DNA of 61,532 nt, counting the filler, from Rhabdomonas costata (taxonomy: Eukaryota), in the NCBI GenBank assembly GCA_019059605.1. It is 12 parts of 12 records of this genome, joined end to end, with 100 filler letters (N's around TTAATTAATTAA, not from the genome) between each part and the next. Parts side by side here need not be neighbours in the genome. Positions count along the whole stretch, not along the records: positions 30,981 to 36,005 come from JAHMHO010000112.1; 11 more parts are not named here. The stretch is one strand, 5' to 3'. This document shows positions 5,061 through 45,320 of the stretch, in pieces (within the stretch, counting starts at the first letter, position 1; every line of letters begins with the position of its first letter). The position numbers were made by a program, and so were the translations under genes. The notes beneath the pieces are model-generated. The model saw nothing but the letters and a program-made list of their open reading frames with translations, made no database searches and was not told the DNA's origin.

Positions 5061-5160
5061 NNNNNNNNNNNNNNNNNNNNNNNNNNNNNNNNNNNNNNNN
5101 NNNNTTAATTAATTAANNNNNNNNNNNNNNNNNNNNNNNNNNNNNNNNNNNNNNNNNNNN
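5061..5160. other. Artificial contig linker (44N-TTAATTAATTAA-44N). Identical linkers at 10260-10359, 15430-15529, 20607-20706, 25753-25852, 30881-30980, 36006-36105, 41118-41217, 46210-46309, 51369-51468 and 56444-56543
   Basis: The same 100-nt structure with a six-frame stop sequence recurs 11 times at about 5-kb spacing. Confidence 0.99.
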
Positions 5161-19639: not shown

Positions 19640-20606
19640 ATTTCTAGTAATTCACCACTGTAGTTATGGCAGTAAACTGCACATGAACGGGTGGCTGAGA
19701 GACAGTGAAATGCACGAGCCACTGTGGTAGCAATTGAACGGCAGATTGGTGAGCCAAAATATACCGGCGCAGCTGATGATTCTGTCGGCTTGCAAATAGA
19801 TCTACATGAGGAGCGATACCAAAGTTCTGGCATATTGCCAAGAAAGAAACTCGCCACAGCATCACGTCATCATTGCTTCTGAAATGATGGTGAGGGTCAT
19901 TGTGTTCAGACTCGCTCACTGAAAATGGACTACACATCTGTGCCAACGTGACACAGGATCACAAAAGGACAATCCATATGCACTGCTACATCACTGGAAG
20001 TTGGCTTGCCTCTTAATTTTGGCAAGGTGTAACGATCCAGATCTCCCAGGTGTTCCACATCCATAGACATATGAGAAAAATCACTTGCGTGGTACGCGGA
20101 CATTTTCCAGAGATTTTCCAGAGTACACCATGCCAAATGTCAGCTGAGGCTAAGTTGAAGCTCAGCTTTCGTGAGGCAGTACCAGTAGAGGGGAAGAGGG
20201 TGTCAAAAGACGTGCAAGCGCGCAGAACAGGATGAGCGTGTGCGGCATCGTTCCACTTCCACAACCCCCTTTTTGGTGGAAGATTGTGGAATGTCATAGG
20301 AGGCAATACCCCACCCAGAGAAACCATTCCACAGCCCAGAAGGTGTGAATGCAAATGTCCCCACCCAAAAGATCCAAGCTCCTTTGCCAAGATCTGCATT
20401 CACGAGCCAACGGTGCATCCTATGCTCCCACTGTTCTTCAGAGTTTTGCCCCAAGAGGTTGCCATATTCACGCCAAAGCGGCTTGGTAAATCGAAACGAG
20501 GTCGGCAACACCCCACCGTTTTAAAAAGGCGACGCCCGGAGGAAGCACCAACATTACCAACGGACGAACGGAAGAAACCTCCGCCCCATTTTATTTGCCA
20601 AACCCC
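19640..20606 (-). mobile_element. Degenerate DIRS/Ngaro-like retroelement (RT/RNase H remnants plus adenine-methyltransferase-like domain)
   Basis: SFLAICQNFGIAPHVDLFASRQNHQLRRY matches the DIRS-associated F..I...FG.P.IDLFAS..N.QL.RY motif. Upstream frames are broken. Confidence 0.6.
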
Positions 20607-30263: not shown

Positions 30264-32084
30264 GCTCCGCCTGACTGTCTCTGGGTGGGGGGGATGGGAA
30301 CCTAGCACGGGGGTTCCAGCTATGCACCCTTATGTTAGGGCCAGTTGTGAGGGAATCTGACACTTACTGCTTTCTGGGGCTTCAGTGGTGAACTGCATTC
30401 CATCAGTATGTCTCGGCAATGGGGGGCAATAAGGGCTGGAAGACGATGCGTCACAACGACAAGAATCTGCGTCGGCGTACAGAATGGTTAATCCAGGTAA
30501 AGTTTGAACACAGCACGGCAGGGTGCGACGCTTTTTCTATTCTCCTTGTTTGGACGCACCTCGTTTCTTCCGTTTTGGTTCAGTCCAATCGCGTGCGGTT
30601 TTTGATTTGCTGTTGTATTTTGCCTATAAACTTAACTAAGGTTTGAGAAGAGCCCGCAACACGGACTTTTTCTGTACGTGGGAATTAATTAGCAATTGCC
30701 ATTTCACTCCTCCCGTGACCCGAAACTGCACGAAACTCATGAGAATGTCTCACCCGGAGCATTTCACTGTTGTTTTGCTCAGGGGAAGTGCCCAACCTTG
30801 ACGAGACCCAAGTAGTGCTTTTACAATGGGGCTTGGCGTCTTTGGGGCTTTCTTTAGGCACACCTGAGCAAAACAACCCCNNNNNNNNNNNNNNNNNNNN
30901 NNNNNNNNNNNNNNNNNNNNNNNNTTAATTAATTAANNNNNNNNNNNNNNNNNNNNNNNNNNNNNNNNNNNNNNNNNNNNCGTGTAGCAAAGACTTCTTT
31001 TTGGTGTCCTTCTCCCATGTTTATTGTCTCGCTGTCCGAGGACCGCTTGATAGAGAAACAACGCTAGGCCGACTGAAAGTTGGCGGGCGATTTACGTCCC
31101 ACCGCTCCGGCTATGCAATGCTGAACACAGGCGGAGCGGAAGTTGTTGTGTTGCAAAGACGTCTTTTTAGTGACGTTCTCTAATGGCCATTGCCTCGCCG
31201 TCCAAGGAAGACTGCACACAGTAACGACGCCTGAGGGCAATTACTCCGGGGATTCGGTGTTGAATACTGGGAGCATTGAAACCGCGAGAAGGTAAATACA
31301 CAGGATAGGCTCTCACTCCAACATGGTGGTGCTCGAGAGAGAAGTTCGGTTTTCCCGAGAAGACCCAGATGCAGCCAGGGCAAAAGAACACGACATGCCG
31401 CACACCTGAGAATTGGGGATTTGGGACGACAAGCTTCTCTGTAATGCAGGGCAACGAGGTCACCAAAATACTATTTACCAAGGAAGTCGTCCACAGTGTT
31501 GCAGATTCTTCATCGCTCCTTTTCATCGCATCATATAGCATCATCTTGTAATTTCGTTTCGTGTTTCATTATGTTACCTTCATCTCATGACACAAAACCG
31601 GTCCGTGTCAGCTGTCTTTTAGCAGTAATTTATTGGGCGTACTCGGGAAGAGAACTCTCGCCTTTAGCTCAGCACTACCCGCAAAAACAAAAAAACAACC
31701 TAGAGAGATGCCACTCCAATGAAAGGTTCATAAGATTAGGGTGACGAAAAAAAATCAAACCCCATTGCATCCCATCTCGGTCCGAAGATGGGTGTGAACG
31801 TTGCCCAGGCAAGGTGGGGTGACCCCGAACTAAGGGAACACACACAAAAGAATCGAATAACAGGTGGGCATGCAAAGAAGCAAAAACCGCACTAACCTCC
31901 CTTTCTCTTTATTGTCACCGTGAACTGGCATCCGGGATAATTTACAGATGTGGCAGAGTTATTGCGCGACACATCTGGAAGGCGGTCTCCTCGGCCCACT
32001 CGTTAGTTGATCAAGCGAGATTTTCAGCTTCTGCAGCCTCCCCCTCCGCAATCTCATGGGAATCTCTCTCTTTTTTTGCTGTAC

Positions 32085-35000
32085 GGCTGGAAGCTGTAGT
32101 CCAAGATGAACGTGGTCAAGGAGGAGAACCCCAACGCCGGAGGCACAAACTCGGCATGGAGGATGCTGGAGCTGACGGGAAGGCCTTTCTCCCACACCAC
32201 CACAGGGACGGGGCAGTTTTGGGTGTCGAAAGGGAAGCGGTGGAAGTCCATCGCGCACGAGGTGGTGCCAATGACGTGACGGTACAAAGTGAAAACATCG
32301 TCTGCAGGGAAACAAAAGTAAAAACATGGTCTCCAGGGCTGAGGGAAGACAATATAGTGAGCCGAACGAAATCGTTCTGGCTGTGGTCTGGTCCATGGAT
32401 CCGCCATTTGTTCATGCATCACGTTCATTCAACATGCATCGGCACAGTAGCTTCATTTAGAGGAGAGTTGCAGCGAGCACGTTTTTTTTGGCAGTTAGAT
32501 GCCTTCCACTTGGTACAGTGGCATTGGTACAGTGAAAGCTCGAACCGAAACTAGGGCATTAGTGTGCCCTGAAAACCACCACAACCCCTCATGATGGCTC
32601 AAAGCCAACAACAAAAAGAATAGAAAGAGTTATTTCACAGCCCACAAAAGATTGAATGACCCATCTACATCCCAGGCCAGCCTTCCCTCCTGCGATACGA
32701 ACCAAAGTGAGTCCATCACTTTCACTGGTATACTGCCCGGGGTTAGGCCCTCCATCCTCCCCCCCAACACGTGGAAGGGGGGGGGCTGCGACCTTGCTTT
32801 AGCTTGAATCAAAGGAATCAAAGGCTCTGGACCCTTCAAGGCACCACAAGTCGAGCCAGCTGTACAGTGCTGCCACTGCGTCGCTGCGGACGGTTGGGTA
32901 CACAACTTGAGGAACACCGCGTCTCTTTTGCTCTTGAAGCCTACGCTGAAGGCCAACCCAACCCAATGCAGCAGACGGCTAGGGGAAAACTCCAACTGCT
33001 CGTGGAAGATGTCTTGTAGATCACCAGGAAAGAGCTGTGAAGACGTTTCGGGGATGACCGCCACTTTTGCACTGCTCCTCTGCACAGATGATAGCTCTTT
33101 CCGGGGAATCCACCATTTCTGACAAGTGAGGAAAGACGGGACATCGAAATTGATCCTGACATTTCTCGGATCCGATGAAACCGGCTGGTTGTAACACAAA
33201 ATGTGACTCCAGGCCCGGGCCAGTAGTTGGGCTTCTCTAAGACTTCTCCCAGCTCGGGTGGCCATGATAGGTGAAGAATGGATTCTCATCGAGTCCGATT
33301 CTTCTTTGGAATTCTTCGGTTCGGAAAGGGTGGGAAAAATATTAAAAAGAAGGGTCGGATTCGAACTACGAGGAGTCCTTGCCAAGAGAGAATACTAGTA
33401 CCCGCAGGAATAACAAGCGCCCAAACAAAATGCGCACAAATGGAATGTGAGTCAGGTGGCGACCCGAAAAGGTCATGCAGGGAAGCTGGGATTGAGGTCT
33501 GATCATGTCTATGGTCAACACTCAACACAATTCACGTAAGTGGAGAGAAGAGACTACGGTGGACATTCCCACGGAATCGCCCCTCAAATAACCAGGACTT
33601 ATATTTCTTTTTTGGCGGCGGGGGTGGTGGTGGTGGTTAAACGACTACCGCCGTTCAAGGTCAATACCGTTAAACCATCCTCCTCTGTAGAGAGCAGAAG
33701 TCGGAGCTGTTCTTAAACGGTCAAAAATTTATCTTTGGGGCAGTAGAACAGTAGACTTAATCCCCTTGCACAAAAATATTAGCATCGAGTAAGTACAGGC
33801 ACACTTCACCTAAACCCCGTGCTCGGGATAAAACCTTTTGAAAACAAAAAGATTTTGGTGTTTAACGGGGTCAATCGTTTAACACCTTAAAACAAGAAAA
33901 ATCAACACTTACGCAAGCCCCCCCTCAACCGTCCGCTCCGGCCCCGCCGCGGGCTGACGGGCTTCCGCCCCTTAAATTTTGTTGTCGCAATCGGTCCGCA
34001 AAGTCCAAAACGTTTAACCCCACTACCGACAATCCTCGGGTTTCCCTTACACCCACGATCATGTACTTTGACCACCTGAAACCGCACTTCGAAAAGGAAC
34101 AGGGCTACCTTTGACATCTGCCTGATCGTTGGGAACTCAGAGTCGGATACCATACCACGTGGGGCATGACCGTGTCGAAAACAAGCTCCGGGACATATCT
34201 TCCTCTGACTTTGAGCATGTTTACCCCAGTGGCAGCCAGAATTTCCTGAAAACCCATCAGCTCCGGGTCCTTCCAGTATACCATGACGTCTATGTCCACG
34301 CTGAACTGCTGGTTAGACTGCTGCAAGTCCGACACCCGCCTCAGGGCGATCTCTACCGAAATGGAGTCGTTGCCAATTTCCAGCTGGTGAGCTAATGAGG
34401 GTGAAAAAGGCGCAAAATAACGATGGCGTGGAACTTAGCAGGGCGGCTGTGTGGGGGAGAATATTGGGTCATGGAGCACCTAAGGTACCATGGCTGGACC
34501 TCCTGGGGCAATCGATGTACAGGTTGATATGGGGCAGAAGACAATTAGCCTCCAAAGCCCTTGGCCCGCCCGCCCATAGCCCACCAAAAAAACTTCCATA
34601 AAGAAAAACAGCCCAGAGACCGATTCCGGAAAGGCGCAGAACGTTTTTCAATTCTGAGCCCATAAACACGTGACACCGCCGGACAATAAAAAAGGCCGTT
34701 ATATGGTATTATCAGCTCTGCAAAGAAGTTCCCTTCCTCCCCATACCGCGAAGAAAGTACAACAATGAATCCTCACTACAACGCCGCCGCTGACCACATG
34801 GGGTCAGATATAGTTTTCAAAGCCCTCTAATAGTCTAATTTGGCAAAGGTTTTTACTACAAAGAACCGTTCATGTGGGATCGAGGCGAACAAACACACGA
34901 AATGTCAGAGGGTCATAGTCGCTCCGCGAGAGGTAATCCAAAAGCGTCTTATGGGTTGCCCCTGGGTTCGATTCCGCTTTGGCGCCGGTCCGCGTCGGCA

Positions 35001-35121
35001 CAGTGCGGGAGGCCTGCCCGACAAAATGCATCTCCGGTTGCCCAACTAAAAAAGCTGTGCCAATACCAACCGTAAGCAGCAGCAGCAGCAAAAACAACAG
35101 GGTAAGCGCAGGGCAGGGGAT
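32085..35121 (-). pseudogene. Pentameric ligand-gated ion channel (Cys-loop receptor) extracellular domain; reading frame disrupted
   Basis: Exons ~35121-34899, 34391-34109, 32550-32503 and 32301-32085 give a signal peptide, LLDYL..SDYDPLTFP, ISVEIALRRVSDLQQSNQQFSVDIDVMVYWKDPEL, VWYPTL and CAMDFHRFPFDTQNC. Lesions are a frameshift at ~34140, a 14-bp insertion at 32510-32534 and no in-frame ATG (ATC at 35119-35121). Confidence 0.85.
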
Positions 35122-36248
35122 GCTCCCCTGCTTCCGAGCGCAGCAGTAGGTCCCGTCTCAAAATCAAGGCGAATCGGTTGGGGGGACAGGAAATGGTAGC
35201 AGGACAGAGATTCCTCTGGCGAAGAAAAGAAAAAACCTCCCCTCCCCACCACACAACAGGTCCCAGAGTTCCTTATGTGACAATGATGTGACACAGGACA
35301 CCCCAGGGTGGCCAAGGGGCATCACCTTTAAGCGATCTCAAACCGAAGCCCTTTTGCGGTGAGAGGACGGCGTACCTATGGTAACGTTAGATGCATTGCA
35401 ATGAAAGCGCGTGGATCACATGCTGTGAATGACTGCCAAAAAGAAACCGCAAGGGTACAGTGGGGTAGTTTTATTCGAAAGGGGCCATCAGTGAGAAAAA
35501 AGGAGAATAATTGGAGTTCTCCCTTGAAAAACCTCGCCCGTTTCCACCCCCTCCTATGATAGGCCATTTTGCAGAGTTTCGAAAATAGTCAATTCCCGCT
35601 TGCAATGACCCCTAGGTCAGGTTTCCCCTCTTGATTTCGACTGTTTTTGCCCTATTCTTGGTCCATCTTGTCTGTTTTGAACCCCAGTTTGAGCATATTT
35701 CATCATGAAATTGACGGCAGTATGTCCCATTGGGACCTGGACCTTGTCGGCCCATATATTAACGAGGGGGCAAAGGGAGCTTCAGGGTCATTATCCATTT
35801 CAAGCCCACTGCTTATTTCCAGGTCTGTCATAAGTTCATACATTCCAACCCAGAGACAGCTGCTGATACGTTACCGGTTTGCGAGACCCACCCACTTGCT
35901 CCAGAAGCGGCAGGCAGTGTGGGCGCACTTCCTGTCCTTCTTCACTCCCCAGGCTCGTTAAATTGCTTTGAAACAGTGGCTTAATTTGATGACACGGAAT
36001 CCTTGNNNNNNNNNNNNNNNNNNNNNNNNNNNNNNNNNNNNNNNNNNNNTTAATTAATTAANNNNNNNNNNNNNNNNNNNNNNNNNNNNNNNNNNNNNNN
36101 NNNNNTGTTTTTGGTCTGATGTGAGGATGTCCTGAGCTGCTGCCGGCCGACCGTCGGCATCCATCATTCGCTTTCGAGCGCACTACGAATGATCACTCCC
36201 TGTTTTCTGTGCAGCAGAAAGAGGTATGGGTAAAATCTCTCTTCCAGG

Positions 36249-43329: not shown

Positions 43330-45320
43330 GCCAAGTGCTCCTACAAAGTCTTGTTGTAGAACAAGATCTCTTCAATGTAGGCTCCTGCATACTTCATCAT
43401 CTTTTGGAAGATGTAGTTCATGTTGTTATGTAAGGTAGCTGGGGCATTGCAGATTCCAAACGGAATGACATGGTAGACGAAGGTGCCATACGTTGTTTTG
43501 AAGACTGTGCGCTCCACGTGGTCTGGTTGTGCACGGATCTGGTGGAAGCCAGTGTGCAGGTCAAGCTTGTAGAAGAAACAGATGTATACAACTTGATCAA
43601 GCATCTCGTCTATGCGTGGAAGTGGGTACTTGTACACCAGGGTCAGCTTGTTGATGGGTCTGTAGTCCACCACCACCCGCAGCTTCCAGCTGGCGTTCGG
43701 GAAGAACCGATCACGGAGTTGAACACGGCTTCATTGATGTACTGATGGTCCAGCAAGTCCTTCAGCTGACGCTGTAACTAGTCATTTTCTCTGGTGTCCA
43801 ATCTGTACATGCGTGGATCTGGGATGCTAAAATGTTCTGGAAATTCAATGCGATGATTGGTAGGACTAGCTGGTGGTAACCATGGTTGAAGCTTATCTGG
43901 AAAGAGATATTTGTACTCCTCGTTGATCTTGTCTGAACTGGAGGGCCACTAGTTGATCAGCTCCTGAACTTCCTTGCGCTCAGACAGCTTCTTCATCTTC
44001 CGCATATTCCTTTAGTGGTTGGCGGCGAGCAGCGCACGCATATCCCGATCTACACCATGTCTGGACTCACAGTCTGGGAGGGATTACTGCAGGTGGTTTG
44101 GGTGCTGGCTGAGGAGGCATAGGCGGAGCAGACTCCTTGCGTTTCCTAAAGGTGAGCTGATACCTTGACTGTGGCAGCACATTTATTGAAAGAGCAACCT
44201 GTGATATATAAGGAGAAGCATTTTTAGATTCCGGAGCGGCAGAAAATGGAAGGTGCCGCCACGAAACTGCCGTTTGACGTCGGCTTCGTGGTAGATCACT
44301 TCTGTGGTTGGCTGCTCTGAAACACCAGGAGCGTTTCCGAAACCGAACAAACTCCAAAGGATCAAAACCCACATTCACCTCGCACACTTCACGGCAGTTG
44401 TGGAACAACGTGCACTGGGTGTCGCAATGTTTTCCAAAGGCAATTGCGCCACACAATCACCGTTCGTGACGTGTAGTCTCTAAATCTGTTGTTGATCAGC
44501 AAGATATTTACATTCCCTTGTAAGTCGGTATCAATTACTCCAGCTCCAACCGAGATGTGGTGCTTACAGACCAAACCACTGCGCTGAGCAGTGCGTCTAT
44601 ACATGCCGGTAGGTGTTGCAAAGGAAACGTCTGTGGGAATGAGCGCATTGTCTCCAGATGCAATAACCACATATTCTCCATGGGCAATGTAAAAACTGGT
44701 GCAATATGGGTGCGTCGGCACGGCAAAACAGCCTTGCTTCTGAGACATTTCACCAGCAGAGTTTCCTCCTATCCCAACCAAAACCTTCTTCTGTGCAGAG
44801 GGATGGGTTCCGAGAACGAGATGGGTTTGCTCTGGCTCACAACTCGTTCCCGAGCGGCATGATTGGGTGTGGGCGTGGGCTTCATAGAACGGAGGCTCCT
44901 CCAGCAGACACCACACAGAGAGACAGAGTTCGCAGGACACTAACCAGTATGCAACAGATGTTGCGGACTCCTCTCCGCACGTGAATCCGCGGGGGCTGCT
45001 CCGCAAGGCCCCTGCCAACGCCGCATTGGCTTCACACCGGAAGCTAACTGGAACCAGGAGTCAAGAAGTGCTACTAGTATTAGCGTGGCCTCCACTTCAG
45101 GGTACGTGAATCAAATCCGCGACCTTGCATCCACTAGACCGGCCACAAGGCCACTCAGACAAAAGACCGGCCATGTCTGATTCATGGTTGCCAGCGGTGT
45201 CAGTGAAAGCGTTAAGGGTTCCATCATGACACCTTCTCCACTGATATGGTGATCTAGTTTGGAGGTTATGGCGTCTGGGTGATTGGGGTCCCGCTGATGC
45301 TTCTGATGCAAGCATTCAAA
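43330..45320 (-). mobile_element. Degenerate Ty3/Gypsy LTR retrotransposon, order protease-dUTPase-RT
   Basis: ALLDS (aspartic protease-like, ~45060); dUTPase at ~44400-44760; LPP...HRIEF (~43860); RT VVDYRPINK..YPLPRIDEMLD..KLDLHTGFHQIR..FKTTYG...PFGICNAPAT (43341-43676), with YIDD decayed to YIEE. Confidence 0.9.
44400..44760 (-). pseudogene. dut: Trimeric dUTPase domain inside the retrotransposon
   Basis: ALIPTD...PTGMYRRTAQRSGLVCKHHISVGAGVIDTDLQGNVNILLINN contains dUTPase motifs II (RSG) and III (GVID.DY.G-like). Confidence 0.85.

Follow-up and report, generated by a model that had tools for sequence, protein, structure and literature searches.

A short direct repeat within intron 2 of a putative Cys-loop channel pseudogene of Rhabdomonas costata

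A short direct repeat in a Cys-loop channel gene of Rhabdomonas costata raises the question of whether one copy plus its filler is removed from DNA or RNA, so that a reading frame is restored, or whether the repeat is an ordinary local duplication. We analysed it in a stretch of 61,532 nucleotides (hereafter, the window), where the locus occupies contig G000:C112 (window 30981-36005); the assembly measures 97 Mb in 104,289 contigs. Linkers of the form N44-TTAATTAATTAA-N44 occur about every 5.1 kb in the window (e.g., at 5105-5116 and 30925-30936); they join contigs, so that genes adjoining in the window are not genomic neighbours. The 11-bp repeat and its 3-nt filler were present and exact, as the earlier note had reported: copies of the unit TTGGTACAGTG lie at 32510-32520 and 32524-32534, separated by GCA, with a period of 14.

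Exon borders in the channel family

Exon 3 of the locus matched PF02931 with an E-value of 4e-06 (26.8 bits; cut-off, 26) and contains the C-x13-C loop given in Table 1, and exon 2 matched the same domain below the cut-off (E 9e-04). The four-helix transmembrane domain (PF02932) was matched below the cut-off in paralog contigs C260 and C511, with one of five matches above it; the window contig ends before this domain. A search of the genome with the exon-3 protein found 14 places, 13 of them besides the window copy, and the Cys-loop family of this genome, as judged by similarity, has at least 14 members. A full-length search for homologs by shared words yielded 223 candidates, none of which was significant. 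Members of this expanded euglenozoan C-x13-C family were seen at window 31897-35157, L002-L014, L017-L021 and L024-L026, several of them apparently decaying: L007 (G000:C21597) has its exon-3 acceptor changed from AG to AT, L009 and L024 carry in-frame stops, and in L002 the exon-3 frame is shifted close to the 3' end. Cys-loop channels are known in protists, and the main text of that 2016 inventory, in the part available, makes no mention of euglenids or excavates (PMC4795631). A literature search on such channels in protists and Euglena returned none. We regard the expanded family as a small side lead rather than the main finding.

In seven paralogs (L005, L017, L024, L025, L026, L020 and L021), exon 2 ends in ...FPT(I/M)xQxxx with GT directly after it. 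The window exon 2 ends in ...FPTIRQISK, its last base being 34109, and the GT is retained at 34108. Twelve of the 13 paralog hits reach far enough upstream to cover the start of exon 3, and all 12 carry the motif xD...G(V/L/I)NE there; the acceptor, for which the sequence was read in 10 of the 12, was AG in nine and AT in L007. Paralog exon 3 begins with ADETTAGVNE after AG and is joined directly to exon 2. Both exons are present in four contigs, with phase-0 GT-AG introns of 920, 895, 564 and 1027 nt, and the direct join is open in each. Note that L004, which also has both exons, was left out of this count because its exon-2 end is apparently frameshifted. Furthermore, the unrelated proteins P0001 (...RKVEQSDETAA) and P0003 (...RKMETPDEAG), two of four HMMER hits with ~30% identity to the channel family, are continuous across the exon 2-3 junction. 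Paralogs and outside proteins thus join exon 2 to exon 3 directly, indicating that no micro-exon is needed between them. We infer the splicing of exon 2 to exon 3 in this family from conservation.

Table 1. Features of the repeat locus in window coordinates, ordered along the minus strand
Feature	Position	Strand	Remarks
Probable first coding exon	34897..35157	-	hydrophobic signal-like stretch, ...LLDYLSRSDYDP; tblastn to paralogs L051, L052; boundaries approximate
Exon 2, ligand-binding domain	34109..34383	-	family donor GT at 34108; frame-shifting 1-nt deletion between 34137 and 34136
Intron 2	32395..34108	-	last ~109 nt including AG acceptor gone
Dispersed repeat within intron 2	33731..34021	-	at least ~35 other genome matches; 48 rows listed
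Proposed micro-exon of the earlier note	32503..32550	-	not an exon but intron-2 sequence; absent from family structure
11-bp direct repeat, 3-nt spacer	32510..32534	+	14-nt tandem duplication of ~1.8 units; within intron 2
Decayed exon 3	31897..32394	-	Cys loop CAMDFHRFPFDTQNC, ...CQFTVTIKRKG; paralog-defined true start
4-nt deletion, exon 3	32378..32379	-	from paralog comparison
1-nt insertion, exon 3	32350	-	also in L016
22-nt insertion, exon 3	32309..32330	-	resembles adjoining downstream exon sequence; supplies pyrimidine tract before false acceptor 32302
87-nt insertion, exon 3	31989..32075	-	dispersed-repeat fragment; in-frame TGA at 32056-32054

The earlier note had placed the repeat inside a micro-exon that, after removal of one copy plus filler, would bridge the flanking exons in phase. 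Deleting 14 nt from minus-strand 32550-32503 did reproduce the described product, that is, 34 nt encoding FRFELSLYQVE plus one base (G), with TAG before and GC after. However, the borders to be bridged are not those of the family: the donor lies at 34108 and not at 34075, 33 nt past it, and exon 3 starts near 32394 and not at 32301. Both splice sites of the earlier note were thus rejected, the acceptor at 32302 being a false one created by a separate 22-nt duplication, which accounts for the error. The repeat interrupts no exon and sits within intron 2.

We then counted how often such a phase fit arises in the 1,774-nt intron of the earlier note. Sixty unedited YAG...GT/GC stretches were open, 19-61 nt long and phase-bridging (phase 0 in, phase 1 out), with 24 different acceptors among them and GT donors in 35. 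From the proposed acceptor (32550), three such stretches exist with the insert retained, one of them likewise 34 nt long and ending at a canonical GT. With 60 chance candidates in a single intron, the exact phase fit of the micro-exon is no evidence for it. Seven phase-1 GT donors could bridge the same gap directly; one of these, GTAAGG at 34050 spliced to 32301, was considered but discarded, as the paralogs place the donor at 34108 and use another acceptor. In BLOSUM62 comparisons from the junction to the LYRH motif, six real segments gave +10 to +91 in each of their 15 pairings, whereas the segment with the proposed micro-exon scored -34 to +1 against the same six. These scores and the family structure place the micro-exon outside this protein and 32503-32550 in the intron. 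The homologous stretch lies in an intron of the intact-looking L005 as well, and the micro-exon is not kept there. The lesson for method is that phase-bridging micro-exons arise by chance in intron-rich genomes, and that paralogs should set the exon borders first.

Lesions and history of the window copy

Comparison with L005 and L003 revealed six lesions in the window copy besides the repeat. These are the deletion in exon 2, the four changes in exon 3 listed in Table 1 and, at 32395/32394, the loss of 111 nt relative to L005, which comprises the intron-2 end with its acceptor and the two nucleotides that open exon 3. Although decayed, the true exon-3 start can still be recognised at 32394-32331. 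Removal of 14 nt therefore cannot mend the gene, contrary to the claim that it restores the channel frame. Two of the lesions, namely the 111-nt deletion and the single-nucleotide insertion in exon 3, are common to the window copy and the independent contig L016, indicating that those two are not assembly errors. On these lesions, the window copy is to be read as a pseudogene. The earlier view of the repeat as a lesion in a pseudogene was thus correct in its second half, which the lesions and the intact-looking paralogs support, but the repeat, being intronic, breaks no exon. The earlier note had also held that a silent gene beside an intact paralog would mean an ordinary lesion or an artefact; as regards the paralog, intact-looking ones exist.

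The 87-nt insertion had at least 13 other matches at 75-84% identity and is an internal piece of a parent repeat that spans 180-285 nt between other copies (L046-L050). We rejected it as a non-conventional intron since, by inspection, its ends show neither GT-AG nor CAG/CTG and it is internal to a longer repeat. That the stretch bearing the direct repeat is a high-copy mobile element was not supported; among the DNA matches listed, it occurred in the window and L016 only, and in part in L005. Intron 2 also contains a 254-aa open frame on the minus strand (33394-32633), for which there was no Pfam family and no Atlas hit at or above 0.9; its only matches, all partial, were to L016, L005 and L023, the first two of which interrupt the frame by stops or breaks, and it is probably a chance frame. 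Elsewhere in the window, the minus-strand frame 43341-43730 resembles what we take to be a fragment of a Ty3/gypsy-type reverse transcriptase, and another at 19644-19958 has a ...HVDLFAS... motif, presumably reminiscent of the methyltransferase-like domain of DIRS-type retroelements.

L016 (contig C37149) is a truncated sister copy, identical to the window at 393 of 430 aligned positions (~91%). It has both repeat units, with mismatches and a period of 15, and its homologous stretch is open to the same GC without any deletion. Presence in both sister copies and alteration in L016 indicate that the repeat predates their duplication, and that it drifts, unlike a precise pointer. In L005, whose exons look intact, there is a diverged first unit only, and ~28 nt including the second unit are missing, which is compatible with either polarity, duplication or deletion. 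A DNA search found the repeat site in at least two places in the genome, neither in the 14-nt-deleted form.

Repeats of this kind are frequent here. The window holds 21 exact non-microsatellite repeats of at least 11 nt with a period of 5-30, including the one under study, against a chance expectation of 0.55 per window (mean of 20 Markov-3 simulations), and other loci from this genome, 46,343 nt in total, contained a further eight. The repeat at 32510-32534 is above random-sequence expectation, yet commonplace in this genome, and with 21 similar repeats in the window it belongs to an ordinary background of short local duplications.

We therefore put the probability at roughly 95% that this is a neutral, intronic short duplication without a role, in a duplicated Cys-loop channel pseudogene. 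A short local duplication would presumably have arisen in intron 2 on one branch of the expanded family, with replication slippage or microhomology-mediated repair as its likely cause. This branch would then have lost its exon-3 acceptor and become a pseudogene, which was presumably duplicated to give the window copy and L016, with further indels and the repeat fragment coming later. On such a history, the repeat would never have been part of a mature mRNA, nor would it be excised from DNA.

Alternative explanations

The repeat might instead go back to a transposon once present in intron 2, either as its target-site duplication or as a footprint of its excision. An 11-bp duplicate around a 3-nt filler is compatible with this, as are the dispersed-repeat fragments in the same intron and in exon 3, but none of the genome matches listed had an element between the two units, and comparable repeats with a variety of periods are common here. 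We consider such an origin unlikely; if true, it would be equally neutral and intronic.

A 14-nt non-canonical intron within the micro-exon had also been proposed, and might be conceived as a variant of the euglenid non-conventional introns. The latter are abundant in euglenids and often flanked by short direct repeats, as described in the available part of PMC12501133, where the Euglena rule is N3-CAG...CTG-N5, with CAG at +4 to +6 and CTG at -8 to -6. However, in none of the 12 registers of the 14-nt piece was either this rule or GT-AG satisfied: GT/GC-AG occurred in 0/12, N3-CAG in 0/12 and CTG-N5 in 1/12. The ends are not predicted to pair, the fold energy being 0.0 kcal/mol for the 14-mer and -0.8 kcal/mol for the 25-mer, the host micro-exon is outside the family structure, and the gene is broken elsewhere. 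An intron of this type is thus very improbable. The same holds for a reading in which the decayed copy is transcribed via new cryptic sites and loses the 14 nt from DNA or RNA by an undescribed repeat-guided process, which also needs the six other lesions to be bypassed or wrong.

Pointer-guided programmed DNA elimination, in which somatic DNA would lose one copy plus filler as an internal eliminated sequence (IES) and retain a coding micro-exon, is scarcely conceivable at this locus. The paraflagellar rod is a euglenozoan marker, and its family PF05149 had nine matches above the cut-off in this genome and none in 14 control genomes, which argues for a euglenozoan and not a ciliate host; taken with the GT-AG introns, a euglenid or diplonemid is probable. 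In addition, the repeat lies in an intron, six other lesions would persist after its removal and no translatable gene would result, the supposed pointers differ and have changed period in L016, and the deleted form is absent from the at least two genome matches to the site. Only the geometry agrees, the exact 11-bp repeat lying within the 2-20 bp of canonical ciliate pointers (PMC9797194, in the part available). The likeness to ciliate eliminated sequences therefore extends to length, but not to lineage, position or outcome. The two papers listed for programmed DNA elimination in euglenozoa do not concern nuclear elimination, as judged by titles and abstract openings. If euglenozoans did have 14-nt introns or DNA elimination guided by repeats, this would be very important; this locus supports neither. 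Finally, an assembly artefact is hardly credible in spite of the fragmented assembly, since a second contig (~91% identity) carries a diverged form of both units.

Comparison with known systems

The family shares with Cys-loop pentameric ligand-gated channels (PF02931/PF02932) the C-x13-C loop with FPFD and the WxP motif, and the paralogs have a candidate transmembrane exon. The window copy differs in being a putative pseudogene, and the family is divergent, its best outside protein having ~30% identity. With the euglenid non-conventional introns (N3-CAG...CTG-N5 before R, with end pairing), the 14-nt piece shares a plausible lineage and direct repeats, which are common near such junctions; in contrast, it has no CAG and no hairpin, is 14 nt only, and has no real exon around it. 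Spirotrich IESs (Oxytricha, Tetmemena and Euplotes woodruffi) are alike in having a pointer-length direct repeat around a few bases, whereas the repeat at 32510-32534 is non-ciliate and intronic, its removal gives no working gene, and it is inexact in the sister copy. The closest likeness is to a short tandem duplication in the intron of a duplicated pseudogene, from which we saw no notable difference: shared are the direct repeat with a short spacer, decay between copies, many similar repeats around, a host gene disabled by frameshifts, a stop codon and acceptor loss, and intact-looking paralogs.
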